64,000 nucleotides of DNA from an uncultured Candidatus Micrarchaeota archaeon. Lineage in GTDB: Archaea; Micrarchaeota; Micrarchaeia; Anstonellales; Bilamarchaeaceae. The stretch is taken from contig CAWDQD010000013.1 in assembly GCA_963804385.1 (NCBI GenBank), positions 43,735-107,734 of the forward strand, written 5' to 3'. A model generated the notes under the pieces. It searched no databases. It saw only the letters and a list, made by a program, of their open reading frames with translations, and was not told where the DNA came from. A program made the translations under genes and the position numbers. Shown piece by piece: positions 7,712-47,187 of the stretch (its first letter is position 1; each line of letters starts with the position of its first letter).

Positions 7712-7758
7712 GCCTCTACTAACATATACGTAGTTTATAAACGTTTTTTCGGGATGCT
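7664..7758. repeat. Copy B of the promoter + signal-peptide module (see 125..229)
   Basis: Direct sequence similarity to 125..229, including the TATA-like tttataaac and the start codon context. Confidence 0.75.
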
Positions 7759-12181: not shown

Positions 12182-12246
12182 AAAAGAAAATCGCAGAATA
12201 AGGATAAAAAGCGTGGCTAAAGGGTTGCCAAGAAAAAAAGTAGGGC

Positions 12247-16541: not shown

Positions 16542-17864
16542 ATGTCTTCCTCAGAATTATTCCTAGCCGCCACGCGTCCCAAAGCAGCCCGGCCGCTCCG
16601 GACCCTGCCGGAGAAATTGAAGGTGGGACTGCAGGCCCAGCTCGAAGGCATTATGGTCCCGGGGAACAGGAAGGAGTACCTGGATGCAGTGGCAGGCATC
16701 TCGGAGAACGTCTTCCCTGACGAGATACCTGGGATGCCGGAAAAGTACGACAAGGATATCATCGGGATCAACGGGGCGGTCGATTTCTCGAAGAGGCGCC
16801 TGCAGGCGGTCGCCAGGCTGCTCAGGCTCGCGGATTCGGACGATTACCTGAAATTCCTCGCGAGGCCGGGTTTCCGTCTGGCTACGTTCGAGAAGATGGC
16901 GGCTACATTCAATACAGACAGGGCGATCGTTTTCACTGATGTGCCTCCGGATGTCACCGAGAAGGCCGAAAGGATCTGCGCCCTGGCCAAGGAGGATTCG
17001 GATCATGCGCTCCGCGGCATCGCTGGCATACTGAAAGAATATCTCTCCAGGGACGCCGAGGAATCGTTCGAGCGGGCTTCGGCCATATGGACAGCGTACG
17101 AGAGCGCCGCGTTCCTGAGCGGTAACATAGAACGGGCGGCATCGCTGGTGCGCAAGAGCCACCCGCGAGTGTATTCCAGCCAGAAGAGGCTGTTCGAAGA
17201 CCAGGAATTCGTGTCCCCGCTGCTGCAGCAGGAGCTCGTTCCGGAGTATCTCAAATTCGTGGTGAAACCGCTTCTCCTCGAGCATGGGATCTACACCCAT
17301 CTGGACAAACGCAAGTACCTCAGGTTCTCGAAAAGATCCGACATCTGCATGATGAGGGGATATGTCCTGAGCCACCCCGAGGAGATATTCAAGAAGGACA
17401 CCCTGGCCATCACACTCGGCTGGGACATGCTGTTCAGGAGGGATGAGGAGCAGCACGCCCAGCACGAGCTGCAGCACGCGTTCGACAACCTGATATCCGT
17501 GGATGGCGGCAGCACGGATAGGGAATACCGGGCGACGCTGGCCGAGCTGGCGTTCTGCAGGAACAAATGGCCCACTCTCAACATGCTGATGGAGGTACCG
17601 GAACAGATATTGCTGGTGGCGATCCTAGGTGCCAAGCCCAACAGCAAACCTCATTTCGATGCCAAGGCGAGGGCGTGGAGAGAGCTCGCGCACGTGAACC
17701 CCGATATGTCAGGCATGATCGATGTGGTGGCGTCCCCGAATCCGCCCCTTCGCAACCTGGAACCCGGCAATGCAGGGGCGCACGCCATGGATCTCCTCAA
17801 TAAAGCCTACAAGAAGGCGTGCGGCCTCACTTACGACGAGATTCTTCGGCCGTTCAGGAGATAG
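16542..17864 (+). CDS. Hypothetical protein with an HExxH motif (putative zinc metallopeptidase-like)
   Basis: 440-aa ORF directly downstream of the kinase pair. Contains EEQHAQHELQHAFD (HExxH) followed by EYRATLAELAF. Confidence 0.55.
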   Translation: MSSSELFLAATRPKAARPLRTLPEKLKVGLQAQLEGIMVPGNRKEYLDAVAGISENVFPDEIPGMPEKYDKDIIGINGAVDFSKRRLQAVARLLRLADSDDYLKFLARPGFRLATFEKMAATFNTDRAIVFTDVPPDVTEKAERICALAKEDSDHALRGIAGILKEYLSRDAEESFERASAIWTAYESAAFLSGNIERAASLVRKSHPRVYSSQKRLFEDQEFVSPLLQQELVPEYLKFVVKPLLLEHGIYTHLDKRKYLRFSKRSDICMMRGYVLSHPEEIFKKDTLAITLGWDMLFRRDEEQHAQHELQHAFDNLISVDGGSTDREYRATLAELAFCRNKWPTLNMLMEVPEQILLVAILGAKPNSKPHFDAKARAWRELAHVNPDMSGMIDVVASPNPPLRNLEPGNAGAHAMDLLNKAYKKACGLTYDEILRPFRR

Positions 17865-22407: not shown

Positions 22408-22501
22408 GCCTCAGTAGTGTAGAGCACTTTCCAGTGCGCACGATGGTTCAGCATACGAGACTGTCACTCTCGCGACCCGGGTTCGAATCCCGGCTGAGGC
22501 G
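22408..22501 (+). tRNA. tRNA-Asp (anticodon GUC) with a ~20-nt insertion (putative non-canonical intron) in the D-loop
   Basis: Acceptor GCCTCAG/CTGAGGC with discriminator G. D stem GTGT/GCAT. Anticodon arm CGAGA-CTGTCAC-TCTCG. T arm CCGGG-TTCGAAT-CCCGG. The D-loop is 30 nt (22421-22450) instead of about 8-11 nt and contains the hairpin GCAC-tttcca-GTGC. TATA gtttataata lies about 30 nt upstream. Confidence 0.65.
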
Positions 22502-22572
22502 CTTTTTGTTTTTCCGCGCGATGACTACAAAACAGACGCGACTTTTATAAAGAATAGGCGTATGCTATCATA

Positions 22573-23340
22573 ATGAATTTCAATCTGCATATCGACGAAT
22601 ATGCTGATAGATACAAAAGTAGACCGCAGCTAATCCGAGCACTCACCGAAGATTGGTTTTCCGATGAGATGTATTGCCCCAACTGTCTTTCCGAAGTCGA
22701 ACAATTTCCTGCAAATTCGAAAACAAAGGATTTTTTCTGTTCAAACTGCGCCCATACGTTTGAACTCAAGAGCCATGCCGCAAATTTCCCTAGGACTATC
22801 CCCGATGGGGCGTATGAAACATTAATTGCGAACATTCAATCAAACCATGCACCAGATTTTTTCTTCCTTTGTTATGATGCAAAATGGCAAGTGTCTGATT
22901 TGTTTCTCGTACCCAGATTTTTCCTGAATCGCTCGGTTATTGAAAAACGTCCGCCATTGTCTAGTACAGCAAGGAGGGCAGGTTGGGTCGGGTGCAACAT
23001 TAAACTTGATAGGATTCCTTTCGCTGGCAGGATCGATGTTTTGAAGAATTACACTGAGACGAAACCAAATGACGTGCAAAAGAAATACAAAAAAGCAATT
23101 TTTCTGGATGAGAAAGATATTTCGCAAAAAGGCTGGTTTTCAGATATGCTACGTTGCGTACAGACTTATCATAACACTTTCAGTCTGGAACAGTTTTACC
23201 ACGATTTCGAAGATGAATTACAGGGATTACATCCAGATAACAGACATCTTAAGGACAAGATTCGCCAGCAGTTGCAGGTTCTTCGTGATAAGGGCTTCTT
23301 ACGGTTTTCTGGACGAGGTACATACGTTTTGTTCAAGTAA
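22573..23340 (+). CDS. DpnI-like methyl-directed (G-m6A-TC) type IIM restriction endonuclease
   Basis: Colinear with my recollection of DpnI. N-terminal ...RALTEDWFSDEMYCPNCLSE...DFFCSNCAHTFELKSH, then IPDGAYETLI, PLSSTARRAGWVGCNIKLDRIP, and a C-terminal winged helix KDKIRQQLQVLRDKGFLRFSGRGTY. The gene is visibly AT-richer than its neighbours. Confidence 0.8.
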   Translation: MNFNLHIDEYADRYKSRPQLIRALTEDWFSDEMYCPNCLSEVEQFPANSKTKDFFCSNCAHTFELKSHAANFPRTIPDGAYETLIANIQSNHAPDFFFLCYDAKWQVSDLFLVPRFFLNRSVIEKRPPLSSTARRAGWVGCNIKLDRIPFAGRIDVLKNYTETKPNDVQKKYKKAIFLDEKDISQKGWFSDMLRCVQTYHNTFSLEQFYHDFEDELQGLHPDNRHLKDKIRQQLQVLRDKGFLRFSGRGTYVLFK

Positions 23341-23355: not shown

Positions 23356-23541
23356 CTACTCGATACAGATATTGCCCGGGCCGGCGATCTTCATCCACTG
23401 ACAGTTGCCATCGATGAACTCATCGGCGTAAGTTTGGGCGTCCATTTTCGGAGGAAGATGAATAAGGCGTACATTGCTGTCGTTGAAGTCCAAGACGGCT
23501 ATCCACCCGTTTTCCTTTACCGATTTGCTTTTCACGCTCAT
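23356..23541 (-). CDS. Small hypothetical protein (61 aa), last gene of the minus-strand operon
   Basis: ORF only. It lies 48 nt downstream of the ATPase gene on the same strand. Confidence 0.3.
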   Translation of the reverse strand: MSVKSKSVKENGWIAVLDFNDSNVRLIHLPPKMDAQTYADEFIDGNCQWMKIAGPGNICIE

Positions 23542-23589
23542 TGTCTTTCACCTCTTCTCAAAATACTCTTTTAGAAGAGCATTGACTAA

Positions 23590-25815
23590 TCAAATCTCCA
23601 CTTTCATATACTCGTCTTTCTCCCATCTTATTTTCTTTATAGCGTCCAAAACGCCAGGGTCCCACGAAACCCAAGTGAGCGGCAATCCGTTCTTCTCGGC
23701 CCGCTCAGCATGGTCAAGTATGACACGCCTAATCGCAGTTGTCTGAATCTCGTAACCTCGCCTTCCGAGGTTGTTCCATAGATAATTTTTCTTCGTGTTA
23801 ATAGGATAGGCTATAAGGTCTACGGAGTCGACCATCTTTTTGCCTGCTCCATTCGGTTCTGGAACGACCACTAGCATGTATTTTTTCTGGAGATCCTTTA
23901 TAGTCTGGACCAGCATGCGCTCATGCAGTGTCGAACCGATCCGGCTCCGGTCCGTATCAAGGATCCTGTCGGCATCGACCCATTTGAGCCCCTTGTCGGT
24001 CAGAGCGTACTTGCTATCGTTCTCGACTGCAAGCCCCAGCCCGAGCAGATTATTGAGTATCCCGGGAGAGCTTGGTACCCCATATACCGTCGCCTTGTTT
24101 TTCACTATCCCGAATCCCAGAATAAGTTTGACCAAGTCAGCCCTGGGTTTCCCAGGATTATAATATATCGCCAAAAGCCCCAGGTACATCGGAGGCGTGG
24201 GCATATCTCTAGGCGGAGACGAAGGCAGCTCCGAAATCCCCCCAGGCACACTCGTTCCGCCCATATCTATCGGCAATTCAGGCTCTTTTATCTCGGATGG
24301 GAAGAAAGCGGTCTCGTGCAATCGACCCAGTTCGGAATCGTCGAGCGGTTTTATCTTGACGTAATCCCCGAAGTGCTGGCCTTTGGCTGCACGGACCTGG
24401 TCGAACACGAACGCTTCGCCAATCCCAGCGGTCCCCAGATAAGCGCTCTCCAGGTCCTTGAACCCGAATATCCTCTTGGCGCTGTCCAGGAAATCGGCGT
24501 CCTTGTAGCTGTGGACGACGCGGATAGCGCTGGAGTTGGTGAACGATTTGGGCAGATCCTCGAGCTGCTGCGTGCTGACGATCATGCCGAAGCCGTATTT
24601 CCTTCCCAACCGCACGATGCGGCTGGGCAGAGGCTCGTAGACCTGGATGTCGTCCCTCTGGTTCTGCAATACGGCCCATGCGTCATCGAAAACAACGAGC
24701 AGCCTCATCTTCTCCGGCTGGCCCTCGAAGTATTCGACTATCCTCTGGAATATGGAGTAGGAGACGGTGGATTTCTCGATCTGGTTCAATCCGGCCAAAC
24801 TGACCACATTGTTCCGGGTGAGCATCCCGTCCCAGAACTCCTCCGGTTCGGTCCCGAAAACCCGCTGCACCGTGCGTAGCCTTTGGTCTATCCAGTTGGC
24901 GTACTGCCGCTGCTCCGGGCTCAGTTTCCTGTCCTTGGATCTGCGGTCCACGTCCTGCCAGATGTCGAGCAAAGAGGGCGTCTGGTTCTTCTGATAGTAG
25001 GATATAGCGATCGTGCGCAGCATGTTGGACTGCAATGGCGTGAGCTTAGCGCCGAACTGGAATAATTCGGATATGCTTGAGACCCTGTCAGCGACAGAAG
25101 CGCCGCGAAGCAGAAACGGATTTATCTTGAAGTGCTTGCCTGCCTTCCAGACGGTCGCGTTTATCTTGGAACCCCACTCTTCGCTCTCTCCGTTCCAGTC
25201 CAATATGAGGAATTTTGTCCCATACGCCAGGGCCGAGCGTATCAGGAACGCACGCAACGTCGTGGTCTTCCCTGAGCCTGAGCCGCCTAATATTATAGCA
25301 TGGGGATTCGGCTCGGCTAGGTAATCCAGGACGAATTCCCGGGTCTCGCCGACCATGAGGGGCTTGTTATAACCGTCCTGCCGCTCGCCTGATAGCGTAT
25401 ATTCGCGGGTGTCTAGATAGTGCTTGAACGCCGTGCCCAGATGTATGCCAGCCGCCTTGTCCTTCTTTGTCTTCAGGCCGCTGTAGTAGTGGAACCTGAA
25501 TATCAGAAGGGATAGCGCTACGACGACGCAGGCCAGGAAGAGGAAGAGCGCGAGGCTCGCCGCGATGCCGAATAAGAGGGAGAAGATGAAATACGGGATG
25601 GCGGCCAGACCCGCGAAGATGATGAGTATTAGTAAAGTATAGATGAGATGCATCCTGAACTGCGGGGTGGTATGCCATCGCGCGGTCTCGGGCTTGACCC
25701 GGCCATGCAGGTCATTGATGGCGTCGCTGGCATCCATCTTCACTTCGACTGCCATGCGTGATAGCTTCTTCTGGGCCTTCGGCTTGACAACAGGGATATC
25801 GTTCTTATCCGCCAT
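23590..25815 (-). CDS. Membrane-anchored HerA/VirB4/FtsK-superfamily ATPase (DUF87-like) with a C-terminal wHTH and a PD-(D/E)xK-like module
   Basis: N-terminal hydrophobic hairpin(s) LIYTLLILIIFAGLAAIPYFIF...LFLFLACVVVALSLLIF. Walker A ILGGSGSGKTTT, Walker B LLVVFDDAW, and the HerA-type LGRKYGFGMIVSTQQLEDLP. The C-terminal ~150 aa contains LHERMLV...VDLIAYP...GYEIQTT, an E..D..ExQ nuclease-like pattern. Confidence 0.8.
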   Translation of the reverse strand: MADKNDIPVVKPKAQKKLSRMAVEVKMDASDAINDLHGRVKPETARWHTTPQFRMHLIYTLLILIIFAGLAAIPYFIFSLLFGIAASLALFLFLACVVVALSLLIFRFHYYSGLKTKKDKAAGIHLGTAFKHYLDTREYTLSGERQDGYNKPLMVGETREFVLDYLAEPNPHAIILGGSGSGKTTTLRAFLIRSALAYGTKFLILDWNGESEEWGSKINATVWKAGKHFKINPFLLRGASVADRVSSISELFQFGAKLTPLQSNMLRTIAISYYQKNQTPSLLDIWQDVDRRSKDRKLSPEQRQYANWIDQRLRTVQRVFGTEPEEFWDGMLTRNNVVSLAGLNQIEKSTVSYSIFQRIVEYFEGQPEKMRLLVVFDDAWAVLQNQRDDIQVYEPLPSRIVRLGRKYGFGMIVSTQQLEDLPKSFTNSSAIRVVHSYKDADFLDSAKRIFGFKDLESAYLGTAGIGEAFVFDQVRAAKGQHFGDYVKIKPLDDSELGRLHETAFFPSEIKEPELPIDMGGTSVPGGISELPSSPPRDMPTPPMYLGLLAIYYNPGKPRADLVKLILGFGIVKNKATVYGVPSSPGILNNLLGLGLAVENDSKYALTDKGLKWVDADRILDTDRSRIGSTLHERMLVQTIKDLQKKYMLVVVPEPNGAGKKMVDSVDLIAYPINTKKNYLWNNLGRRGYEIQTTAIRRVILDHAERAEKNGLPLTWVSWDPGVLDAIKKIRWEKDEYMKVEI

Positions 25816-25848
25816 TAACCCCCCATAGATTATTGCCCAATCGGGGAT

Positions 25849-26847
25849 TTAAGGGTTCGTTTTCTTGAAATAATCGAGCGGGATTATGGCGATGGCCGAG
25901 TTGACCCAGCCGTGGAGGTAGTCGGATATCGGCTGCGAGGTTATGTCTCCGTTCCCGATGTGCGATTGGGATATGGTCGGTTTCCCGTTTATGTTACCGG
26001 AATAGACGGAGGTGTGCCCCACGATGAACGGGGTTCCCAAAGGCCGGTCCTTGTCCTTCAGCTTCGATGTGTCGATCACTTGGTTGTTGGCATCCAGCCA
26101 GATCACCTTGTCGTGCTCCTTGGCCTCCCATTCCCGCGATTCCTTCATGTTTCCGAAATGCTTCTCATCTAGGAAAATGACCACGTCCCCTTCCCTGGCC
26201 TCTTTCGCGAATTCATCCACCCCGTCCTTGTAGGAGACGCCCCTGAAGGCGTTCGGCTTGGCGAGTTTCGGCTTAAGCTCGAGGGTCGCTTTCCCTGCGG
26301 CCAGCGCTTCGTTGAGCTCGACGCCCGTGTCGGGATTGACCACCCGCACGTCGTTATTGGTAGTAATCGACCGGTTCACGAACTGCAGGCAGTCCTGCGG
26401 ATTCCCCAGGGTGACCGGACCGGTCAGCTCGGCGTTGTTCTCGGCTGCGACCAGTCTTATCACGCGGACCGCTTCGCTTAGCCACCCCTTATCCTGCTCG
26501 GTCGCCTTGTTGGCATCCAACCGGGCGACCATATCCGGAGGGACGACGACGGGATATGCGATCTGGGCGGTATTCCCGTTCTGCGTCTGCTCGGCCACCA
26601 GGAAATACTTGCCTGCCTTCCGGTCTTTTTCCTCCTGCGGACCAAGGAGGTCCAGCTGCGCGCCTATGAACTCCCTTTTCTGTATGGGGACGCCGTCCAC
26701 GTTCGCGAGCGGCTTGGCTGAATTGTGGTTGAGGACCAGCTTGATGTTCCGGTCTGTCTGCATCCTCGCTCCATCGTTCGCAGGCTCGTGCGCGATGGGA
26801 TATTTCGGAGCTTTCTGCGCTTCCACGACGGGAACGGGTGCTGGCAT
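25849..26847 (-). CDS. Hypothetical protein (332 aa), middle gene of the operon
   Basis: Long ORF with 33-nt gaps to both neighbours on the same strand. I recognised no confident motif. Confidence 0.6.
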   Translation of the reverse strand: MPAPVPVVEAQKAPKYPIAHEPANDGARMQTDRNIKLVLNHNSAKPLANVDGVPIQKREFIGAQLDLLGPQEEKDRKAGKYFLVAEQTQNGNTAQIAYPVVVPPDMVARLDANKATEQDKGWLSEAVRVIRLVAAENNAELTGPVTLGNPQDCLQFVNRSITTNNDVRVVNPDTGVELNEALAAGKATLELKPKLAKPNAFRGVSYKDGVDEFAKEAREGDVVIFLDEKHFGNMKESREWEAKEHDKVIWLDANNQVIDTSKLKDKDRPLGTPFIVGHTSVYSGNINGKPTISQSHIGNGDITSQPISDYLHGWVNSAIAIIPLDYFKKTNP

Positions 26848-26879
26848 GAATCATGATTCGCATTGAAAAATTATTAAAT

Positions 26880-28637
26880 TCATTGGCAGGCGCCGCTGTT
26901 CGTCCCGGTCTCCCCGGGCGGGCAGCAGAATCCGTTCCCGTTCGAATCCGCCCACGCCCCGTCGCCCGGAGCGCAGCAGAAGCCCTTCCCGTTGTTGTCC
27001 ACGTAGTTCCCGTATCCCGAATCGCAGCAGTAGCTGTCCCCGTTGCCGTCCACGTGGCCTGTCCCGCCGGAGCTGCACGAGAAGCATGCGCCGGAATCAG
27101 AATTGCAAAACGGATAGGCAGACGTGCAGCCGCAGTAAGAGCATTTGGGCACTAGCTCACCTGAGGAGCAGTATCCTCCGGCCAATGAGGAGGAGCAGGA
27201 GCCGTACGGAGTGCCGTCCTGGCAGGCGAGTAACGGTACGAACTCGCTCCAGTTACTGTAAGCTGGCAGGCTCTGCAATTCGTTTATGTCTATCGCGAAG
27301 CCGATGCCCGGCGCGCTCCCGGTATAGCCCAGGGTGTTTATGCCTATCAATGACCCGTCGCTGGTGAGGAACAACCCGCCGCCGCTGTTGCCGTGGTTTA
27401 TCGCGGCATCCGTCTGGATGTATTTGGTCCCGCTATTTTGCACGAAATTCGAGATTATGCCGTTGGTGACCGTGTTCTGGAGGCCCAGCGGAGAGCCTAT
27501 CGCGACCACGGTCGCGCCTTGCGATTCGTTCTCGTTTCTTATCATCGCCGGTTCCCCGTAGGTCCCATGCACGTATATGACGGCCAGGTCTATGCCGTAG
27601 GGTGCCACACGGATGTCCGATGCGGTGGCGGTCTTCTGGTCCTCGGTCTCGATCAGCACGTTGGCGATCCCGGACGACTCGTTCACCACATGGTCATTCG
27701 TGAGTATCACCGTCTGGCCGTTCCCCTGGCTGAGGATCACGCCCGAGCCGCTGTCCACGCCGGGCACCTCCACGTAGACCACGCTCTTCTGGGCCGCGGA
27801 GATTATCTGCTCGGTCTGCTGCTCCTGGGTTATGCATGAATCGTTGCTGCAGATCAGCCCCTGGCCGCAGCCGCAGTCCGCGCAGTCGAATACGAGTTTT
27901 TCCTGCTCATCGCAGAGATAGCTCACCTGCGAGCAATGCCCGACCACCGTGCCATCGGAGCACGAGCGGGGGACCACGCTTATCGGAGCGGCCGCATCAG
28001 ACGGGAGATAGAAGCCGTCGCCTTCGAATCTCGCCGGTATGGATTGCATGCCGGTCTCGTTGAAGGACACGCTGGTCTGCGCGATGCCCGATGCATCCGT
28101 CCGGGCGCCGTATGACCCGATCAAGACGGTCTCGTTGGATAGCGGGACGCCTCTCGAATCCGCGAGCGTGGCGTTTATCAGCACTCCGGTCGCGTCCTGG
28201 GCCTGCGCAGGGACGGAAAGCCGTATGGATGTCGGTATGTATACAGGGACCGACGCGCTCCCGGAATCATTCTTGTGGAATATGTCGCCGGAATAGACGA
28301 TTGAGAGGTCGATCATCTTCCCGCACCAATCGGGTTTTACCTCCTGCGTGGAGGAGAAGCGGCCGTTCTGGTCTGTGTTGAGTTTCTCCAGCAGGACTCC
28401 GTCCACATACGTCGATGTCGGCCCGGATACGCCTCGGCCGTCGCTGCCGGTCAACTGCACGGAATATGAGAGCGAGCCGCCGCAGGTAGCGTTCGCATTC
28501 GCTGAAAGCTGGACAGGGGATTGGAAGACGCCCAAGAAAGCGAGCAAAACGATCAATGCGAGGATTAGGATGACGACTGCGGATATGCCGACTATCCCTT
28601 CAGCCAATAGGACGAAAATTTGCGGCTTCTTAGGCAT
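26880..28637 (-). CDS. Membrane-anchored extracellular trypsin-like (S1, HtrA/DegP-type core) serine protease with Cys-rich modules
   Basis: Start set to MPKKPQIF, about 27 nt from the TATA cattataaac (an alternative ATG is at 28649). It has one N-terminal TM segment. The catalytic triad context is LTNDHVV, IDLAVIYV and AINHGNSGGGLF. Two Cys-rich segments are present, including a C-terminal CSYCGC...CFSCSSGG...FCCAPG...FCCPPG. Confidence 0.8.
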   Translation of the reverse strand: MPKKPQIFVLLAEGIVGISAVVILILALIVLLAFLGVFQSPVQLSANANATCGGSLSYSVQLTGSDGRGVSGPTSTYVDGVLLEKLNTDQNGRFSSTQEVKPDWCGKMIDLSIVYSGDIFHKNDSGSASVPVYIPTSIRLSVPAQAQDATGVLINATLADSRGVPLSNETVLIGSYGARTDASGIAQTSVSFNETGMQSIPARFEGDGFYLPSDAAAPISVVPRSCSDGTVVGHCSQVSYLCDEQEKLVFDCADCGCGQGLICSNDSCITQEQQTEQIISAAQKSVVYVEVPGVDSGSGVILSQGNGQTVILTNDHVVNESSGIANVLIETEDQKTATASDIRVAPYGIDLAVIYVHGTYGEPAMIRNENESQGATVVAIGSPLGLQNTVTNGIISNFVQNSGTKYIQTDAAINHGNSGGGLFLTSDGSLIGINTLGYTGSAPGIGFAIDINELQSLPAYSNWSEFVPLLACQDGTPYGSCSSSLAGGYCSSGELVPKCSYCGCTSAYPFCNSDSGACFSCSSGGTGHVDGNGDSYCCDSGYGNYVDNNGKGFCCAPGDGAWADSNGNGFCCPPGETGTNSGACQ

Positions 28638-28711
28638 GAGGATACGCATGCTTTGAAGTTTATAATGCTTGAGAAAAGGATTAAAGAAAACTATATCGGA
28701 TATTGGTCTGT

Positions 28712-29548
28712 ATGGCAATTGAAGAGATATTATCATCTCCCATAGTCGAAAATACGCTGGAGGGCGTATTCCATAAGAAGCCGTTCCATATCATCGAGCG
28801 GCCAGGCTCATTCGTCATAATCCTCAAAGAAGAACCAGCGGACAGGGTCACCCGGCTGATCATACTGAAACCTAATGGATATACGGCCAATCACCCGCAG
28901 GAATTGAGCAGCCATCCCGAGGCGAGGGAAGCGACCCTAGAAATCAAAGGAGCGGTCGGCGCTGGTAAAAAAGGGTACAATCTGATAAAAAATTGCGTGG
29001 AATTCGTTTATTATCCGACCAGGCAGGCGGAAACGATATCCTCCTTCCCGTATGCCAAAGCGGACAACGCCCTGCGGCTGGTGAAGAATTCCAGGACGAA
29101 GTTCAAGGTCATAAAATCCAGCGGCTACGGCTTCTATCACAACCTACGCAATCTCACCGATAGGTGGCTGGTGCTGGTACTGAACAAGAAGCTCGACTTG
29201 TCGAAAGAGATAGATTATGGTTTGCTCGACGCTTGCAGCGGTGAAGAAAAGCGCGCTTTGCTGGAGTTCCATGGTTTGGTTACCGAGAAAGGGGATATGA
29301 TATTCAAGGAGAACAGAACGGCAATAGAAAAGATAACCTCGCTTTCTCCGAAGAGGTGTTTGCCGGTCCTGATCACGTTCCTGAATATGCCGGAACTCGG
29401 GAAACACGAGCAATGCACGGTCTTCGCGGTAATCCTCAAGATGGCCAAGCTGGATAAGCGGCTTGCGCTCGGATTGCTCTCCGACGCCCTGGCCAAGAAC
29501 ACCGCGCAACCGTATTATCTGAACGAACTGATCGAAAAGATCTCCTAA
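28712..29548 (+). CDS. Hypothetical protein (278 aa)
   Basis: ORF trimmed to the first ATG (MAIEEIL). It is divergent from the protease operon. No motif recognised. Confidence 0.45.
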   Translation: MAIEEILSSPIVENTLEGVFHKKPFHIIERPGSFVIILKEEPADRVTRLIILKPNGYTANHPQELSSHPEAREATLEIKGAVGAGKKGYNLIKNCVEFVYYPTRQAETISSFPYAKADNALRLVKNSRTKFKVIKSSGYGFYHNLRNLTDRWLVLVLNKKLDLSKEIDYGLLDACSGEEKRALLEFHGLVTEKGDMIFKENRTAIEKITSLSPKRCLPVLITFLNMPELGKHEQCTVFAVILKMAKLDKRLALGLLSDALAKNTAQPYYLNELIEKIS

Positions 29549-29565: not shown

Positions 29566-29832
29566 CTATTTCCGTATCCCGATCCATTTCTCATAATCCT
29601 TATGCTTGCCGACAAAATAGAAACGCCGGACTTTTCTATCTTCGAATGATTTGTAGCATATCCTATACTGGCGTCCGAGCTCTTCGACAAAATATGGAAC
29701 GCCATGCTCGAGATGCCTGGTCGGCAACCCCTCCAAGATACGTTTTATCTTCTTCGTGACCCGCAGTTTCATATCATCTGGGAGGTCGCTGAAGTATTCT
29801 TTCCAGCCTTCATCGAATTCAGACGCATACAT
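29566..29832 (-). CDS. RelE/ParE-family type II toxin
   Basis: 88 aa. ...LGRQYRICYKSFEDRKVRRFYFVGKHKDYEKW matches the RelE/ParE C-terminal pattern (YRIxY...hhhhxhGxHxxxY). It lies directly downstream of a small RHH gene. Confidence 0.7.
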   Translation of the reverse strand: MYASEFDEGWKEYFSDLPDDMKLRVTKKIKRILEGLPTRHLEHGVPYFVEELGRQYRICYKSFEDRKVRRFYFVGKHKDYEKWIGIRK

Positions 29833-29837
29833 CTGAT

Positions 29838-30098
29838 CTACTCGAGCATTTTCGCGTATTTCTCGCCGAGCGCTTCCTTCGCTGTCAGGACCTTCCGTTT
29901 CCCTTCTTTGATCTCTTTGTCTATCTGCCGCATTTTCTTGACCGCTAGAGGTTCGCTCAATCTCTTGAGCTGGTGATGCTCATTGTAATCCATGATGGCC
30001 ACGCGGATGGCCTCGGTCTTGTTGGTCGCGATCTTCTTGGCGAGCATCTCGTTGATAACTTCTTCCGGGAAGCCCCCGATCTTCAGCGTTATATTCAT
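29838..30098 (-). CDS. Ribbon-helix-helix (CopG-like) antitoxin
   Basis: Trimmed to MNITLKIGGFPEEVINEMLAKKIATNKTEAIRVAIMDY (RHH-like beta-alpha-alpha). A 5-nt gap separates it from the toxin gene. Confidence 0.65.
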   Translation of the reverse strand: MNITLKIGGFPEEVINEMLAKKIATNKTEAIRVAIMDYNEHHQLKRLSEPLAVKKMRQIDKEIKEGKRKVLTAKEALGEKYAKMLE

Positions 30099-30205
30099 GC
30101 ATTGACACCGCATTTAGTATGTACTCAGTCCTTATTAAATATATTTATTGTGTCAAATAATGTATTTTCGTAAGCTATTTAAACAGTTCCGCGTATAATG
30201 ATAGT

Positions 30206-30508: not shown

Positions 30509-31411
30509 ATGATTATGAGGAACCTCGTCCTGATAATATTGGCTGCTGTATTGGTTTTCGGGTGCGTGAATGCCCCGACGCAATCTACGAACGGAACGCA
30601 GAGCAATGCCGTCATACCTTCATTAGGAGGGCAGACCTGCACCCAATCGCAGACATTCTCCGCTCTGGGCCCGGGCATACTCTCGAAGACCAGCGAACTC
30701 ACTGCGAGCGTCACGTGCGCAGGCGGGCAGAGCATAGTCGTCAGCGTGGACAATAGCCCTATCGACACGGTGCAGGTGCAGACCAACGACACTCAGAACG
30801 TCACGCTCGGGATACCGGCCACGATGGACGGCCAGCACACAGTCACTGTGGAGATCGGCGGCCAGAACGTTTTTTCTGACTCGTGGAACGTCACCCCGCT
30901 GGGATTCCAGAAGGTCGAAGGGTTGGAGACCGACGCCGTATCGTACAGGCAATGGCTCGCCGAGGCCGTGGATGTCGGCAACCAGATAACCGTCGCGCGC
31001 GCGGAAGCGTACCTGAGCACCGAGCAGTCATCGATGCAGCCGAACAGCAGCATGATCATGGAGATAAGGACCGACGACAACGGCAAGCCGGGCGCCGTGG
31101 TCGGCACCGCGAAGGACCCGATGAGCGCAATCACGCAGAGCGACAACTGGGTAGGTTTCGATTTCTCTCCGGCCGTGACTCTCGCGCCGGGCCGCTACTG
31201 GATGGTGGTGAAGGCGCAGCAGGGCCAGACCGGCCTCGTCACCGACATAGTGCAGCTGCATTACGTGACGGTCGACAAGACCGCGGCGGGCAACGATTAC
31301 ACCAGGCAGATGACGCTCAGCGTGGACGAGAACACCGGGATCGCGACCGAAACTTCGTGGCAGCCGCTGGGCTACGACAAGGAATACGACGTGTTCCTGG
31401 AATCCGAATGA
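30509..31411 (+). CDS. Secreted or lipid-anchored hypothetical protein
   Basis: N-terminus MIMRNLVLIILAAVLVFGCVNAPT (signal peptide with a lipobox-like FGC). The remainder is Thr/Ser/Gln-rich and beta-type. Confidence 0.6.
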   Translation: MIMRNLVLIILAAVLVFGCVNAPTQSTNGTQSNAVIPSLGGQTCTQSQTFSALGPGILSKTSELTASVTCAGGQSIVVSVDNSPIDTVQVQTNDTQNVTLGIPATMDGQHTVTVEIGGQNVFSDSWNVTPLGFQKVEGLETDAVSYRQWLAEAVDVGNQITVARAEAYLSTEQSSMQPNSSMIMEIRTDDNGKPGAVVGTAKDPMSAITQSDNWVGFDFSPAVTLAPGRYWMVVKAQQGQTGLVTDIVQLHYVTVDKTAAGNDYTRQMTLSVDENTGIATETSWQPLGYDKEYDVFLESE

Positions 31412-31413: not shown

Positions 31414-32082
31414 CTATCGCCGCAATGAGCCGAACATGTCGCCCAGGACTGCGAACCTCAGCCTCTCGATGGTCTCCCCAAGCTTATGGCCGCAGTCGCT
31501 GCAGAAATCCATGCCCGGGGCTGTGTACCGTGCGACGAAGTCCTGGAAACCCGAGACCCCGTGCCGGATGCACATCTCGCTATGGCATTCCTGCTCGTCC
31601 CGGATGAACAGCTTGCCCGCCTCATGCTTCACTATCGCGATGAGGACGTTGCGCCGCAAGGATCTGATATGCTCCAGCGCGTCGAGCGAGACAGCGGCGT
31701 ATCCCAGGTATATGCCTACTCCGATGAACAGGTCATGGAGGACGCGGCTCGATGAAGGAGTTTCGCTCCGGATCAGCATGCTATGGGGCGTCACCGCGAT
31801 GCCGAAGACGTTCGTGATGCCCATGTCGCTGTTGTATCGGTCGAAAGCGCTGTGCGGTATCTGGTCCACGTGTATGCTTTCCTGCGCGGACGTTATCGAA
31901 CGCAGGGATTTCTTGTACTTCACGCGCCTGAACGCGCCTTTCTCATCTGCGCAGGCGCTCTCCACCATGACGCCCAGCCGCCCGAAAGGCTTGAGCCCGT
32001 CCTCTATCGTGGGGACGAGCTCCTTGGCCATGGCTGGATAGATTATCCTGAGCTTGACCTGCCTGAGGATGGTGGGGTTCAT
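31414..32082 (-). CDS. Archaemetzincin-like (peptidase M54 fold) protein lacking HExxH, paralog 1 of 5
   Basis: VKLRIIYP N-terminus, NVFGIAVTP, and VKHEAGKLFIRDEQECHSEMCIRHG...MDFCSDC. The Cys4 pattern CX4C...CXXC is retained, but HExxHxxGxxH is degenerate (HEAGK). Confidence 0.6.
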   Translation of the reverse strand: MNPTILRQVKLRIIYPAMAKELVPTIEDGLKPFGRLGVMVESACADEKGAFRRVKYKKSLRSITSAQESIHVDQIPHSAFDRYNSDMGITNVFGIAVTPHSMLIRSETPSSSRVLHDLFIGVGIYLGYAAVSLDALEHIRSLRRNVLIAIVKHEAGKLFIRDEQECHSEMCIRHGVSGFQDFVARYTAPGMDFCSDCGHKLGETIERLRFAVLGDMFGSLRR

Positions 32083-32107
32083 GCATGAGTAATGTTATGA
32101 ACTTTAT

Positions 32108-32668
32108 TTAAACGTGTGCAGACCCGATACTGTCTTTTATCTTATCCCGGCAGCTCAGGCAGAGGTCCAGGTCCGGCACCACGCATTTGGCGACGAAGTC
32201 GTTGAAATCCGAGACGCCCTGGAGGAGGCATCCGGCAGTGCAATGGGTCGGAATGAACAGCAGGCCAGCCTGTCGCTGCACCATCTTGGCGAGCACTTCC
32301 GGGAATCCATCGGACATCTTATGGTAAGAGACGAACGCGTATTTCCCGTATGCGCTGGAGCAGGAGAAGACCTGCATCTTGCCGGCGTCCGGCCGGAGCA
32401 GGGGATGGATCGTGAGCGCGATGCCGGAGACCGAGCCGAAATCGTCGAAGATGCCGGTCTGGAGCCGGTCGAGCCGTATGCTTTCCACTGCGGAAACCGC
32501 CGAGCGCAGCGGCTTCGAGTATCTGACGCCCCGGAAAGCGCCTTTCTCATCCGCGCAGGAGGTCTCGACCGCGATATCGAATTGCCTTAACGCCTTTAGC
32601 CCGGCTTCTGCCGCCTTCACGTGCTGCGGTGGCATGTAATCCGGGTAAAGAAGACGGATTCTCTTCAT
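32108..32668 (-). CDS. Archaemetzincin-like protein lacking HExxH, paralog 2 of 5
   Basis: MKRIRLLYPDYM, SGIALTIHP, and VQRQAGLLFIPTHCTAGCLLQGVSDFNDFVAKCVVPDLDLCLSC. Confidence 0.6.
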   Translation of the reverse strand: MKRIRLLYPDYMPPQHVKAAEAGLKALRQFDIAVETSCADEKGAFRGVRYSKPLRSAVSAVESIRLDRLQTGIFDDFGSVSGIALTIHPLLRPDAGKMQVFSCSSAYGKYAFVSYHKMSDGFPEVLAKMVQRQAGLLFIPTHCTAGCLLQGVSDFNDFVAKCVVPDLDLCLSCRDKIKDSIGSAHV

Positions 32669-32710
32669 GCATGATTAGTGTTATGAAATCCATATAAATG
32701 TATTTGAAAA

Positions 32711-33298
32711 TCAGTTCATGCCATGGCTGAGGCGCATTATCGTGGATTTTATGGCGGCCGCGCAGTCCCTGCAGAGGTCGATGCCGGGGAACACGACCAG
32801 CTGGAAGAACTCGGAAAAATCGGATGTCTCCTGCATCAGGCATTCGTTGGGGCAGGCCGCGCCCTGGCCTTCGGGCGCCGGTATCAGCAGCTGGCTCGCC
32901 TGGTATCTCACGAGCGCCGTGATGGCCGGGCCAGGATCCGGAAGCCGCATGGGGGCGGCGAGCGAGACCGCGGCGCTGGCCATATAGCCGCCGATCGCTG
33001 ATACCGTCTCGCCATCCGTATCTATCAGGAAATTAGGCGTGAGCGCGATGCCGAAGATATTGGATCCGTCGGAAAAAGCGTCGCGCAGGAGATCCTTGAC
33101 GCGTATGTCGCCATCCGCGTTCACCACGCGCCGGAGCGGATTCGAGAGCCTGACATCAACGAACGCCCTCTCGCTGGCAGGGGCGCTTTCCACCAGCGCC
33201 TTGAACCGATTGAATGGCTCGAGCCCCTCTTCAGCGGCTTTGACATGCTCCCGCGCGAGGGTGCCGGGGTAGATGAGCCTGAGGGTCACGTTCTTCAT
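32711..33298 (-). CDS. Archaemetzincin-like protein lacking HExxH, paralog 3 of 5
   Basis: ORF 32711..33610 trimmed to MKNVTLRLIYPG (ATG at 33298). Contains NIFGIALTP and VRYQASQLLIPAPEGQGAACPNECLMQETSDF...IDLCRDC. Confidence 0.6.
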   Translation of the reverse strand: MKNVTLRLIYPGTLAREHVKAAEEGLEPFNRFKALVESAPASERAFVDVRLSNPLRRVVNADGDIRVKDLLRDAFSDGSNIFGIALTPNFLIDTDGETVSAIGGYMASAAVSLAAPMRLPDPGPAITALVRYQASQLLIPAPEGQGAACPNECLMQETSDFSEFFQLVVFPGIDLCRDCAAAIKSTIMRLSHGMN

Positions 33299-33306
33299 GG
33301 ACACGC

Positions 33307-33933
33307 CTATACCGCTTTTTGTTTCAGGAACTCGGAGGATTGGCGGGAATGTATCAGGCGCCTTATCGTATCGGATATGTCGGCGCCGCACTTTTTGCAC
33401 AGATCGGTGCCCTGCGCCATTATGCGCTCCACGAAATTGTCGAGATTGTGGATATGCTCCATGAGGCAGACGTTGGGGCAGTCCGGATCCGCGCCGGGGT
33501 TTCTCGGGATGAATATGTGGGCCGCTTCGTATCTGACTATCGCACCCAGGGCAGGCATCCGCATCTGCACCGGAAGCCTCATCACACCGTCGAGCGAGAC
33601 CGCCGCGCATTTCAGGTACGCGCCCGCGCTGAGGACGGGGTCGTGGTTATCCGACCGCACAATAGGATGCGCTGTGAGAGCGATGCCAAAGACATTGAGA
33701 TAATCGTCGCAACGCTCTTTCAGCACCGGATCGAGCGGCATCAGGTTGTCGGCGTAGGTTATCTTCCGCAGAAGGACAGCGTGCCTGGCATTCTCGAACG
33801 CGCCGGCTTCGGCGGCCATCGTCTCCACCAGGGCCCCGAATCGCGTGAACTCCTTCAGCCCTGCGCTCGCCGCCTTCACGGTATGAGGTTCCATGGATGG
33901 CGGGTATATCAGGCGGAGAGTCACGTTCTTCAT
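33307..33933 (-). CDS. Archaemetzincin-like protein lacking HExxH, paralog 4 of 5
   Basis: MKNVTLRLIYPPS, NVFGIALTAHP, and VRYEAAHIFIPRNPGADPDCPNVCLMEHIHNL...TDLCKKC. Confidence 0.6.
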   Translation of the reverse strand: MKNVTLRLIYPPSMEPHTVKAASAGLKEFTRFGALVETMAAEAGAFENARHAVLLRKITYADNLMPLDPVLKERCDDYLNVFGIALTAHPIVRSDNHDPVLSAGAYLKCAAVSLDGVMRLPVQMRMPALGAIVRYEAAHIFIPRNPGADPDCPNVCLMEHIHNLDNFVERIMAQGTDLCKKCGADISDTIRRLIHSRQSSEFLKQKAV

Positions 33934-33975
33934 GCTGATACAGTGTTAGGTAATATCTATAAATGTACTTGAAAC

Positions 33976-34563
33976 TCAGTTGCCCAGCCGGCTAACAGTC
34001 CATTGCACGGCGGTGACGCAGTCCTCGCAGAGCTCCGAGCCGCGGGCCATGACCCGGTCCACGAAATCCGCGAATTCATGGGTGCATCGCATCAGGCAAT
34101 CGTTGCGGCAGTCTGGGGGTCCCTCGCTCGGGATGAGCAGCTTGCTCGCGTTGTATTTGACCATGGCGCTGATGATTGGCCCCGGATCCTGGAGCAGCAA
34201 TGGGTTGCCGAGCGATACTACGGCTCCGGTCATATAGCCGCCGAGGGCCGAGATGCTCTCGCGGCGATCCGTCCCGGGTATGATGAGATACGGCGTGAGA
34301 ACGATGCCGAAGACATTATGCGAGATGTCGACCGGGCTGTCGGGGTCTATGCATCTGAGCCGGATGTTGCGTTCCGCCAAGGCCATACTGCGCAGCAGCT
34401 TCGGGTACCTGAGCCGCCTGTATGCGGATTCCTGGATGGCGCATCGGCTCTCGATTTGGACATTGAAGTCCTTGAACGGCTCCAGCCCGGCCCTCGCGGC
34501 CAAGAGATGCTGCTGAGGAAGGGAGCGCGGGTAGATGAGGCGGAGGGTTACGTTATCCATCAA
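33976..34563 (-). CDS. Archaemetzincin-like protein lacking HExxH, paralog 5 of 5
   Basis: MMDNVTLRLIYPRS, NVFGIVLTP, and VKYNASKLLIPSEGPPDCRNDCLMRCTHEF...SELCEDC. Confidence 0.6.
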   Translation of the reverse strand: MMDNVTLRLIYPRSLPQQHLLAARAGLEPFKDFNVQIESRCAIQESAYRRLRYPKLLRSMALAERNIRLRCIDPDSPVDISHNVFGIVLTPYLIIPGTDRRESISALGGYMTGAVVSLGNPLLLQDPGPIISAMVKYNASKLLIPSEGPPDCRNDCLMRCTHEFADFVDRVMARGSELCEDCVTAVQWTVSRLGN

Positions 34564-44827: not shown

Positions 44828-44875
44828 CTACTTTAGTCAACTTTTTATAACTTTCTAAACAATATGATATCCATG
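44828..44875 (+). promoter_or_regulatory. Conserved promoter module, copy 1 (CTACTTTAGTCAACTTTTTATAACTTT...ATG)
   Basis: A near-identical ~48-bp element also occurs at 46001, 47188 and 48357. The TATA box TTTTTATAA lies about 25 nt upstream of the ATG. Confidence 0.7.
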
Positions 44876-45997: not shown

Positions 45998-46000
45998 AAG

Positions 46001-46047
46001 CTACTTTAGTCTACTTTTTATAACTTTCTAGACAATATGATATCATG
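46001..46047 (+). promoter_or_regulatory. Conserved promoter module, copy 2
   Basis: ctactttagtctactttttataactttctagacaatatgatatcATG. Confidence 0.7.
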
Positions 46048-47184: not shown

Positions 47185-47187
47185 CAA

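Follow-up and report, generated by a model that had tools for sequence, protein, structure and literature searches.

A membrane-anchored HerA/VirB4-type ATPase with a winged-helix and nuclease-like tail in a strain-variable island of a Micrarchaeota genome

Introduction

The closest described systems place related ring ATPases in DNA transfer, DNA import, repair and defence. Coupling proteins of type IV secretion (T4CPs; VirD4, TraG, TrwB) combine an N-terminal two-helix membrane anchor with an FtsK/HerA-superfamily nucleotide-binding domain (NBD) interrupted by a helical insertion, and belong to mobile elements. In FtsK/SpoIIIE and in TraB of Streptomyces, a membrane anchor, a motor and a C-terminal winged helix follow one another in that order; in actinomycete integrative elements, TraB by itself is the motor that drives conjugation of dsDNA. 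The HerA-nuclease machines (HerA-NurA in repair, SIR2-HerA, DUF4297-HerA, TdpAB and mad8 of MADS) pair a cytosolic HerA-type core with a separate nuclease effector. CedB and CedD of Crenarchaeota are TM-anchored HerA/VirB4-like import ATPases (PMC11868833), and TedB is placed beside them (PMC11868833, PMC9905601). In Patescibacteria, the bacterial counterparts of the DPANN archaea, T4CP homologues run into the thousands, the majority of them at a distance from virB4, and the T4SS there are suspected of functions other than conjugation (PMC12102498). How DNA is processed for transfer in archaeal conjugative plasmids and integrative elements (ICEs) is open, as these elements have no recognisable relaxase (PMC9905601, PMC6563490). 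The mobile elements of DPANN archaea, and their gene exchange with hosts, are poorly known.

The window considered here, the whole stretch of 64,000 nucleotides that was analysed, comes from an uncultured Candidatus Micrarchaeota archaeon, a member of a group of very small, symbiotic archaea. A first-pass annotation, made from the sequence alone, had described in it an operon of four co-directional genes with a plausible role in DNA transfer or defence. The real feature of this locus is the 741-aa ATPase encoded by the third of these genes, and not the block in which it lies.

The four-gene block is not a conserved unit

The block and the tRNA gene beside it comprise the following features:

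22428..22502, plus strand: tRNA-Asp, its 3' end facing the island; anchors the variable island
23356..23541, minus strand: 61-aa ORF (ORF list)
23590..25815, minus strand: 741-aa ATPase (ORF list)
25849..26847, minus strand: 332-aa ORF (ORF list)
26880..28736 as listed, or 26880..28649 from the start chosen in the first-pass annotation, minus strand: protease ORF (ORF list)

All four minus-strand ORFs are present where they had been placed, separated by gaps of 32, 33 and 48 nt. The protease start at 28649 yields MRILMPKK and a second ATG follows at 28637; the TATA box that had been put at about 28660 is found as TTATAAA at 28665-28659, some 25 nt 5' of that second ATG. Co-directional genes, gaps of 32-48 nt and a TATA-like box before the first gene all favour a single operon-encoded system made of the protease, the 332-aa protein, the ATPase and the 61-aa ORF, and the 332-aa and ATPase genes also lie near each other in the closest relative (L007). 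However, a search for the block in other genomes found it as a unit in no related locus, among only about 12 contexts examined. L007, whose ATPase is 84% identical and occupies the same chromosomal site, has neither the protease nor the 61-aa ORF, and two opposite-strand genes separate its 332-aa homologue from its ATPase. At the same site, L014 has the 332-aa gene and no ATPase, and in L012 the 332-aa gene stands beside ribosomal protein genes. None of the protease, the 332-aa gene and the 61-aa ORF occurs in some 8-10 other ATPase loci. The first-pass annotation had itself made conservation of the block a deciding point, so its four-gene system falls.

Features internal to the block also speak against the operon. 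The spacer from the stop of the protease to the start of the 332-aa gene contains a T5 run and a TTTAATAA box, and the four genes are unlike in GC content, with values of 0.60, 0.58, 0.54 and 0.50 (protease 0.60, ATPase 0.54). The arrangement is a genuine one: the junctions DpnI/61-aa/ATPase, 332-aa/protease and protease/281-aa are each spanned by identical contigs from independent soil metagenome runs, and the DNA contigs compared with the locus showed no joints. In run X1, a contig is arranged as in L007 past the end of the 332-aa gene; the two arrangements thus occur together in a single sample, which again disfavours the operon. A single system encoded by these four genes is accordingly very improbable. 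The best explanation is a chance juxtaposition of four genes in a mosaic, strain-variable island by tRNA-Asp, on the chromosome of what is probably a soil micrarchaeon (DPANN), and annotations should not list the locus as a system of four genes for defence or transfer. Both the ATPase gene and the 332-aa gene are themselves not chance ORFs, since both have homologues and dN/dS values against L007 of 0.11 and 0.20, respectively.

Membrane anchor and motor of the ATPase

The ATPase divides into four parts along its length:

25480..25662, minus strand: two-helix TM hairpin, residues 52-112 (hydropathy and model helices)
24316..25458, minus strand: small beta domain and P-loop core, residues 120-500 (motifs, profiles, model)
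24001..24195, minus strand: winged helix-turn-helix (wHTH), residues about 541-605 (C-terminal model)
23593..23931, minus strand: PD-(D/E)xK-like domain, residues 629-741 (model and invariant residues)

The hydropathy segment at 52-112 corresponds to two long helices, 51-82 and 84-114, in the AF2 model (pLDDT 83.9), with basic residues on both flanks. The core contains Walker A (GGSGSGKT, 177-184), a helical insertion at about residues 241-330, Walker B (LLVVFDD, 372-378), GRKYG (404-408) and STQQ (414-417). In Walker B, DD replaces the DE of the family, a trait of the subclade to which the window copy belongs. G404, R405, K406, G408 and Q416 are invariant in 53 homologues, and K183, D377, R405 (the Arg finger) and Q416 (the sensor Gln) are invariant across the family. 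With a P-loop core, both Walker motifs, Arg finger, sensor Gln and matches of model to structures, the protein belongs to the HerA/FtsK superfamily of ring ATPases. The earlier reading of a TM hairpin joined to a HerA/VirB4-type core thus stands, on family-wide invariance and a confident model.

Its place within the superfamily is less sharply drawn by the profile searches. In Pfam, DUF87 scores 30.9 bits (cut-off 23.2) and FtsK_SpoIIIE 26.3 bits, just over its cut-off of 24; the T4CP models stay below threshold (TrwB_AAD_bind 16.4 vs 20.5, T4SS-DNA_transf 16.2 vs 20.1). Foldseek matches the model to HerA (4d2i, 1.6e-12), VirB4 (4ag6, 9e-12) and TrwB (1e9s, 7e-8). HerA, VirB4, DptH/DndH, TrwB and DotL are among the matches of both Foldseek and the PDB profile search, and HerA-nuclease machines provide the top structural and PDB-sequence matches. 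By sequence, the core is closer to HerA than to T4CPs, and closer to HerA/VirB4 than to FtsK. The best NCBIfam matches are CedB (63.6 bits) and CedD (56.9 bits), against equivalog cut-offs of 700 and 600; the best PADLOC matches are mad8 (58 bits), several HerA models and DndH.

Homologues form 67 clusters, the named ones from Micrarchaeota/ARMAN MAGs, and scans of genome, metagenome and viral contigs (genome_contigs, metagenome_contigs, viral_contigs) with back-translated patterns gave few or no relatives among the matches listed. The family is so far known almost only from Micrarchaeota-type MAGs.

The C-terminal tail

The tail is modelled with high confidence (pLDDT 94). Its first domain is a winged helix, in keeping with weak Pfam matches in the family (HTH_45 in 7 of 29 members, wHTH in 5) and with wHTH proteins among the BFVD fold matches of the C-terminal model. 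The second shows an alpha-beta-beta-beta-alpha-beta order in the model and an H...D...E-x-Q signature (H631, D666, E689, Q691) that is invariant in the family. In the model D666 precedes strand 2 and E689-x-Q691 lies in strand 3, with Gln in place of the canonical Lys; BglII likewise uses E-x-Q. The first-pass annotation had seen a winged helix followed by a nuclease-like end (HE...VDL...EIQ), and family-wide invariance and a confident model bear this out. Its further assignment of the end to a PD-(D/E)xK-like fold is carried by element order and the invariant signature, and is the part that the fold searches leave below significance: Foldseek with the two-domain model found no match in PDB or BFVD at E <= 1e-3, the best lying between 7e-3 and 1e-2, and the sub-significant matches (E > 1e-3) are to restriction endonucleases, VRR-NUC, Vsr, FokI and Ecl18kI. 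Neither Pfam nor PDB sequence searches matched the nuclease-like domain, and a PDB sequence search with the C-terminal profile returned nothing meaningful. The predicted fold is best described as PD-(D/E)xK-like, rather than as an established member of that superfamily.

This C-terminal module is rare, with 126 matches among 1.84 billion representatives. Outside the ATPase family, it forms the end of proteins whose Pfam scores exceed the thresholds of TrwB_AAD_bind, T4SS-DNA_transf and TraG-D_C, and relatives of one of them (P0179) bear the name 'type IV secretory system conjugative DNA transfer family protein'. Profile-profile alignment (hhalign) of the module against P0166 gives a probability of 96.9 (E 1.7e-10). 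Full-length alignment of the ATPase family with P0179 is collinear over 484 columns (98.6, E 1.3e-15), and the ATPase cores alone align to the T4CP-like NBDs at 97.4 (E 1.3e-11). The module is thus homologous to the C-terminus of T4CP-like proteins, including a member from Ferroglobus placidus (P0211). These DUF8128-VirD4/TraG-type proteins (P0179, P0166, P0211) share with the window ATPase the collinear order of P-loop core, wHTH and nuclease-like domain, the homologous motifs G(G/S)ExH, (P/F/V)D(L/I) and E-x-(E/Q), and a setting in defence or mobile-element islands. They differ in having a DUF8128 N-domain, or none, instead of a TM hairpin, in passing the T4CP Pfam thresholds that the window ATPase fails, in reading E-x-E instead of E-x-Q at the third motif, and in coming from Nitrososphaerales, Archaeoglobi and vent metagenomes, not Micrarchaeota.

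The ATPase in tRNA-integrating elements

In three related loci, which belong to other Micrarchaeota, the ATPase lies inside elements bounded by att repeats at tRNA genes. In L010, an exact 28-nt direct repeat of the 3' part of tRNA-Ala bounds 11.6 kb that hold an integrase, the ATPase, a 144-aa protein and a type III R-M system. In L020, a 38-nt repeat bounds 13.6 kb with an integrase, the ATPase, a 139-aa protein and GmrSD; in L001, a 47-nt repeat with 2 mismatches, derived from tRNA-Asn, bounds 9.4 kb with the ATPase, a 138-aa protein, MmeI and an integrase. Common to all three are the tyrosine integrase, the ATPase and the 138-aa protein, and their defence genes differ. Since the ATPase stays and the defence genes vary, it behaves as part of the element core and not as cargo. 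Elsewhere, the family is best explained as a core gene of tRNA-integrating elements of 9-14 kb with changing restriction and defence cargo.

The window copy departs from this pattern. The same tRNA-Asp is found at the same site in L007 and L014, and its 3' end recurs in L007 as a 15-nt copy, 8 nt after the ATPase stop. The window itself has no att remnant of tRNA-Asp, no integrase, and neither the 138-aa partner nor a remnant of its gene, so that all three recurrent companions of the ATPase (tyrosine integrase, 138-aa protein, tRNA att repeats) are missing and the window copy does not sit in a recognisable tRNA-integrating element. Its dN/dS of 0.11 against L007 indicates that it is under purifying selection and functional. 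It is probably an integrase-less copy, domesticated or stranded, that selection maintains.

What does the ATPase do?

The general idea of a role in DNA transfer or defence was reasonable, given the domain reading and the mobile-element, defence-rich settings of the relatives. The reading preferred here, held at a probability of roughly 0.55, is that the window ATPase is a mobile-element DNA translocase-nuclease. The protein would assemble into a membrane-attached and presumably hexameric DNA pump, whose winged helix would select element DNA, whose nuclease-like domain would nick or cut it, and whose motor would thread it across the membrane into a contacting cell. The mode of action of such a pump would resemble that of a VirD4/TraG coupling protein, or of TraB, the FtsK-type motor of integrative elements in Streptomyces, and the nuclease domain would take the place of a relaxase. 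FtsK, TraB and T4CPs are likewise built with a membrane anchor and a C-terminal wHTH, unlike the cytosolic HerA proteins of defence systems.

Comparison with these motors leaves likenesses and differences on each side. The ATPase has the N-terminal TM domain followed by an NBD that is expected of a T4CP, together with the helical insertion, the TrwB fold match and the mobile-element setting, but it falls outside the T4CP Pfam families and its link to them is indirect, by way of the T4CP-like family that shares its C-terminal module. It also adds the wHTH and nuclease-like tail, and neither T4SS partners (VirB4, VirB6) nor a relaxase were seen in the scanned parts of the window and about 12 loci. 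TraB elements, like those of the ATPase, carry an integrase but no other recognisable transfer gene; TraB and FtsK, unlike the ATPase with its nuclease-like tail, are not known to have a nuclease domain.

Several observations count against the translocase-nuclease reading. Beside family members (about 12 loci) and in the scanned parts of the window, no gene for a mating pore, a pilin, VirB4 or a VirB6/CedA-like protein was seen. The T4CP Pfam scores are below threshold and the core is closer to HerA; the nuclease fold is below Foldseek significance, and its canonical Lys is Gln. The window copy is without integrase, att remnant and 138-aa partner, and has DD in Walker B. The neighbourhoods are rich in defence genes, which would fit a defence role equally well.

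Could defence be the real function? A HerA-type motor with a fused nuclease effector might recognise and degrade invading DNA at the membrane, as a single-protein defence or as the core of a system. This is possible if unlikely. It draws on the likeness to HerA-NurA, SIR2-HerA, DUF4297-HerA and TdpAB, which use separate effectors, on the PADLOC matches to mad8, HerA models and DndH, and on Foldseek matches that include SIR2-HerA, TdpAB, DUF4297-HerA and the DndH C-domain. DpnI, MmeI, type III R-M, GmrSD, AbiEii and TA modules are among the neighbours, and the nuclease-like 138-aa partner lies directly downstream of the ATPase in four loci. However, among att-bounded elements it is the ATPase that persists and the defence cargo that changes, and the C-terminal module is common to T4SS coupling-type ATPases. 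The machines named above have a cytosolic HerA and a separate effector, whereas here the nuclease-like domain is fused and the protein membrane-anchored; among the genes seen next to the ATPase there was no NurA, SIR2 or DUF4297. PADLOC found no complete known system and no other mad gene: the P-loop-level matches of the ATPase are isolated, and the other three proteins gave nothing relevant. A membrane hairpin and a C-terminal wHTH are, besides, not typical of the HerA of a defence system.

It seems improbable that the protein is an episymbiont's pump for DNA uptake or nucleotide scavenging, which would cut and import host or ambient DNA much as CedB/CedD do. CedB and CedD are the best NCBIfam matches and, like the ATPase, TM-anchored archaeal HerA/VirB4-like proteins; the Patescibacteria T4CP homologues, mostly away from virB4 and with a suspected non-conjugative T4SS role (PMC12102498), show a comparable situation, and an integrase-less copy under purifying selection would suit such a pump. 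Against it, the scores are roughly ten-fold under the equivalog cut-offs, no CedA/CedA1 partner, CedA-like channel or pilin was seen, the window shows no adjacent polytopic membrane partner, and Ced proteins have no wHTH-nuclease tail. Other family members lie inside mobile elements, and the ATPase is missing from the close relative L014 at the same site, which points to an accessory gene rather than a core nutritional function. Packaging of the genome of an integrated membrane-containing virus by an ATPase of the FtsK-HerA packaging clade, suggested by PHROG matches to a terminase-labelled and an FtsK-like family, a weak Pox_A32 Pfam match and the integrase-bearing elements, is highly improbable and is set aside, because no capsid or other virion gene is recognised in the 9-14 kb elements and no relative was found in IMG/VR; the ATPases of this packaging clade are small and are not known to carry wHTH-nuclease tails.

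Within the translocase-nuclease reading, a bolder proposal, distinctly unlikely as it stands, is that the wHTH and PD-(D/E)xK-like tail could be the missing DNA-processing enzyme of archaeal conjugation-like transfer, a stand-in for the relaxase. The Micrarchaeota elements, with integrase, pump-nuclease and 138-aa partner, would then be minimal self-transmissible elements that move without a pilus apparatus between touching cells, perhaps those of a DPANN symbiont and its host. Both the Micrarchaeota family and the archaeal T4CP-like family, the latter with a protein of the cultured Ferroglobus among its members, have the nuclease-like domain joined in frame to a DNA-pump ATPase. This recurrence in two separate branches makes the domain a concrete and testable candidate for the DNA-processing step. 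On this proposal, DPANN archaea would also have a defined family of integrative elements of very small size.

Neighbouring genes

The protease gives family matches to Trypsin_2 (3e-21) and to the DegP/HtrA core (7.8e-34), far under the equivalog cut-offs, and has TNDH and GNSGG motifs, one N-terminal hydrophobic anchor and 26 Cys, in agreement with its description as a TM-anchored, Cys-rich trypsin-like protease. Family scans found no PDZ domain in it, and its PADLOC matches were limited to the protease portions of the RT-protease and LmuA models. With no counterpart found in any related locus, this HtrA-like serine protease is an unrelated neighbour that, of the loci compared, only the window has.

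The 332-aa protein has no hydrophobic segment and no match in Pfam, NCBIfam, PADLOC, PHROG or PDB. Only 3 homologue clusters exist, two of them without the ATPase; it is a genus-level backbone gene, unlinked to the ATPase. The 61-aa ORF has no homologue in related loci or family libraries. Compared with the 138-aa partner of the elements as a possible counterpart, it proved unrelated; it is a putative gene, supported only by a GAGGTGA 6 nt 5' of its ATG.

Beyond the block, the label of a RelE/RHH module at 29566..30113 finds no support in Pfam or NCBIfam, and the DpnI-like neighbour was recognised correctly:

22573..23340, plus strand: DpnI-like methyl-directed restriction endonuclease (PF06044 at 5.7e-60)

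The GC content of this gene is low (0.41), and it is cargo of the island.

A four-gene row beside tRNA-Asp

The first-pass annotation had read four minus-strand ORFs as a single operon with a plausible role in defence or DNA transfer. All four are present in the window, and their positions hold:

26880..28649/28736, minus strand, HtrA-type protease
25849..26847, minus strand, 332-aa ORF
23590..25815, minus strand, 741-aa ATPase ORF
23356..23541, minus strand, 61-aa ORF

Gaps of 32, 33 and 48 nt separate them, and the sequence TTATAAA lies at 28665-28659, about 25 nt upstream of the protease ATG at 28637; a TATA-type box at this distance fits a leaderless archaeal mRNA. Read-through from the protease into the 332-aa gene would not be required by the sequence, since the interval between the protease stop and the next start contains a T5 run and a TTTAATAA box. 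The protease is membrane-anchored, trypsin-like and cysteine-rich, as described: it has a single N-terminal hydrophobic anchor, a weak Ig-like match, a Trypsin_2/HtrA-type core (3e-21 in family scans) with both TNDH and GNSGG motifs, and 26 cysteines in two clusters. Its match to the DegP subfamily (7.8e-34) scores far under the equivalog cut-offs, and the family scans matched no PDZ domain. Neither the 332-aa nor the 61-aa product matched a family in Pfam, NCBIfam, PADLOC or PHROGs.

GC content along the island is 0.41 in the flanking DpnI-like gene, 0.50 in the 61-aa ORF, 0.54 in the ATPase, 0.58 in the 332-aa gene and 0.60 in the protease. A Pfam scan upheld the DpnI-like label, and the RelE/RHH label for 29566..30113 could not be confirmed. 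The DpnI-like methyl-directed restriction gene (22573-23340) is probably a recent acquisition, given its low GC (against 0.55 for the window) and its absence from syntenic relatives.

Conservation of the block

Could the row be a functional unit? ATPase homologues fall into 67 clusters, those named being Micrarchaeales, ARMAN-1 or “Marsarchaeota” MAGs, and the window sequence itself was met only in soil and sediment metagenomes. The closest ATPase relative (84% identity) belongs to locus L007, which is syntenic with the window on both flanks: one has purH, a PHP-domain gene and tRNA-Asp, and the other has the 300-aa gene, a 91-aa gene and ~198-aa genes in a tandem array. L007 has no protease, 61-aa ORF, DpnI gene or RelE/RHH pair, and its 334-aa homologue of the 332-aa protein is parted from the ATPase by two opposite-strand genes (596 and 125 aa). 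Only three homologue clusters of the 332-aa protein were found: the L007 type, one at the same chromosomal site, by tRNA-Asp and the PHP-domain gene, where the ATPase is missing altogether (L014), and one adjoining ribosomal protein genes (L012). At eight more ATPase loci all three supposed partners are missing. Both arrangements co-exist in one soil run, where a contig that matches the 332-aa gene at its 3' end leads on into L007-type sequence and not into the ATPase. The block is thus not conserved as a unit in any of these loci. By the first-pass annotation's own standard this refutes a four-gene system, and that framing is not supported; the best-supported reading is that the genes are accidental neighbours within a mosaic island at tRNA-Asp.

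Architecture of the ATPase

An AlphaFold model of the ATPase built from alignment A1 (53 full-length homologues) is confident (pLDDT 83.9). It starts with two long helices (51-82 and 84-114) that match a hydrophobic segment at 52-112; basic residues flank the pair on both sides, so the remainder of the protein would be cytoplasmic. Next come a small beta domain, a P-loop core interrupted by a helical insertion (~241-330), a disordered linker (500-535) and two compact C-terminal domains. Among the positions that never vary in the 53 homologues are K183/T184 of Walker A, D377 of Walker B, R405 of GRKYG and Q416 of STQQ; model and alignment thus bear out the predicted transmembrane hairpin, Walker motifs and GRKYG...STQ signature. 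Fold searches match the core to HerA (4d2i, 1.6e-12), VirB4 (9e-12) and TrwB (7e-8), and also to the DndH C-domain and the SIR2-HerA, TdpAB and DUF4297-HerA defence complexes. When PDB sequences were searched by profile, HerA came out on top, with DotL and other coupling proteins lower. Family-library matches are all sub-threshold or barely significant: DUF87 at 30.9 bits, FtsK_SpoIIIE at 26.3, CedB at 63.6 (cut-off 700), CedD at 56.9 (cut-off 600) and PADLOC mad8 at 58. The ATPase is therefore a member of the HerA/FtsK superfamily, with no sub-clade fixed by the comparisons.

A tail shared with coupling proteins

The C-terminal tail, modelled alone from the last 207 residues (alignment A2, 29 sequences), reaches pLDDT 94. 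It is predicted to form a winged helix and then a domain ordered alpha-beta-(short alpha)-beta-beta-alpha-beta-alpha-beta, with H631 in the first helix, D666 just ahead of the second strand and E689-x-Q691 on the third. None of these four residues varies among the 53 sequences. In the model this is the layout of a PD-(D/E)xK nuclease with Gln replacing Lys. BglII uses E-x-Q. Database support is only suggestive: weak wHTH Pfam models match 5-7 of the 29 members, and Foldseek retrieves FokI (1.2e-2) and Ecl18kI (0.11) from the PDB and several “restriction endonuclease”, VRR-NUC, Vsr, MmcB and endonuclease I entries from BFVD (probabilities 0.3-0.98), none of these PDB or BFVD matches reaching E 1e-3. 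The earlier reading of the tail as wHTH plus nuclease-like is therefore plausible and in keeping with these results, though it stays a prediction.

Searched against 1.84 billion representative proteins, the tail profile found only 126, mostly the ATPase family or its fragments. The exceptions are proteins of ~600 and ~900 aa (P0166, P0171, P0179, P0181 and P0186) that exceed the Pfam thresholds for TrwB_AAD_bind, T4SS-DNA_transf and TraG-D_C and are thus VirD4/TraG-type coupling proteins. Their tails read GGELHR...PD(I/L)(V/I)AYP...(A/Y)(L/I)E(V/I)E. By hhalign, the tail profile matches P0166 with probability 96.9 (E 1.7e-10), and the full-length family is collinear with P0179 over the 484 columns between Walker A and the C-terminus (probability 98.6, E 1.3e-15; 97.4 for the ATPase parts alone). 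P0179, on a hydrothermal vent contig (L023, 10001-12691), is a DUF8128-TrwB/TraG-like ATPase with the same wHTH and nuclease-like tail, flanked by AbiEi/AbiEii, Dcm and Vsr, a Cas4-like PDDEXK gene and a large helicase/MZB pair. Its relatives named [quoted passage not shown] come from a Nitrososphaerales MAG and Ferroglobus placidus, the latter with the tail present, and Patescibacteria are rich in more distant ones.

Integrated elements of the family

At four loci a tyrosine integrase is encoded no more than a few kb from the ATPase, and three of these show the element boundaries directly:

L010, 4193-4220 (3' part of tRNA-Ala) and 15777-15804, exact 28-nt direct repeat enclosing 11.6 kb: integrase, ankyrin-repeat protein, ATPase, 144-aa protein, type III R-M pair
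L020, 3447-3484 (in tRNA-Ala) and 17068-17105, 38-nt repeat enclosing 13.6 kb: integrase, ATPase, 139-aa protein, 770-aa protein, GmrSD
L001, 6199-6245 and 15547-15593 (in tRNA-Asn), 47-nt repeat with two mismatches enclosing 9.4 kb: ATPase, 138-aa protein, 275-aa protein, MmeI-type R-M, integrase, IS

Integrase, ATPase and a ~138-aa protein are common to all three, while the defence genes vary by element. The small protein is encoded directly downstream of the ATPase in four Micrarchaeota loci:

L001, 10223-10639
L010, 10878-11312
L020, 10184-10603
L022, 10197-10610

It is conserved better than the ATPase (65-82% identity between loci). Neither Pfam nor PHROG gave a match for it, and the motif GRIDLVA...RVAIEYDH hints at a small PD-(D/E)xK/Vsr-like nuclease. 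No capsid, VirB4, channel or pilin genes were recognised in the elements, and IMG/VR yielded no relative.

The window has no integrase, 138-aa gene or att remnant. Its ATPase is under purifying selection (dN/dS 0.11 against L007; purH, for comparison, 0.04). In four of the 53 members Walker B has DD where the family has DE, namely the window (codon of residue 378 at 24682-24684), L007, L004 and L008, and these are exactly the four without a nearby integrase and 138-aa partner. In L007, a 15-nt direct repeat of the tRNA-Asp 3' end (12219-12233 and 13958-13972) includes a copy 8 nt past the ATPase stop; this copy and the tRNA itself enclose an AAA_14/DUF4143 gene, which suggests serial integration at this tRNA.

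Proposed role of the ATPase

FtsK, Streptomyces TraB and coupling proteins combine a membrane anchor, a ring motor and a C-terminal winged helix, the same layout as the ATPase. From architecture and context we infer, as the best-supported reading, a mobile-element-derived, membrane-attached DNA translocase that would carry a module of its own for binding and cutting DNA. The most economical mechanism would be DNA processing and transport in the service of element transfer, given this layout, the tail held in common with bona fide T4CP-like proteins, and the ATPase's place as element core while defence cargo varies. Recognisable relaxases are missing from archaeal conjugative elements (PMC9905601, PMC6563490). 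As the main rival reading, the HerA-nuclease fusion could act in defence, a role supported both by the defence-rich neighbourhoods and by the structural kinship with HerA defence complexes; the variation of defence genes around a constant ATPase is among the grounds for preferring transfer. An episymbiont might also use the ATPase for Ced-like DNA uptake (PMC11868833, PMC12102498).

The HerA/FtsK superfamily and the logic of pairing pump with nuclease are already known. The literature searched held no account of the ATPase-tail fusion, of its confinement to Micrarchaeota, of its return in an archaeal T4CP-like branch or of the small att-bounded elements that have it as their core.

Other genes of the window

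Two tandem families are present. On the minus strand, 31414-34563 and probably to 35820, lie at least five paralogues of ~190-220 aa (31-46% mutual identity), an array that L007 keeps as six to seven copies of ~198 aa; the one member tested had no family match. Four paralogues of ~375 aa (36-45% mutual identity) occupy the plus strand at 44864-49519, possibly to 52298; neither the first (44864-45997) nor an adjoining 492-aa ORF (49606-51084) matches Pfam or NCBIfam. A giant 2501-aa ORF (278-7783, minus strand) with repeated NosD/right-handed beta-helix domains presumably encodes a surface protein. So, probably, does the 300-aa gene at 30509-31411, kept in L007 and L014, whose product carries a hydrophobic segment at the N-terminus and weakly matches the “choice-of-anchor R” domain (1e-6, 28.8 bits, cut-off 30).
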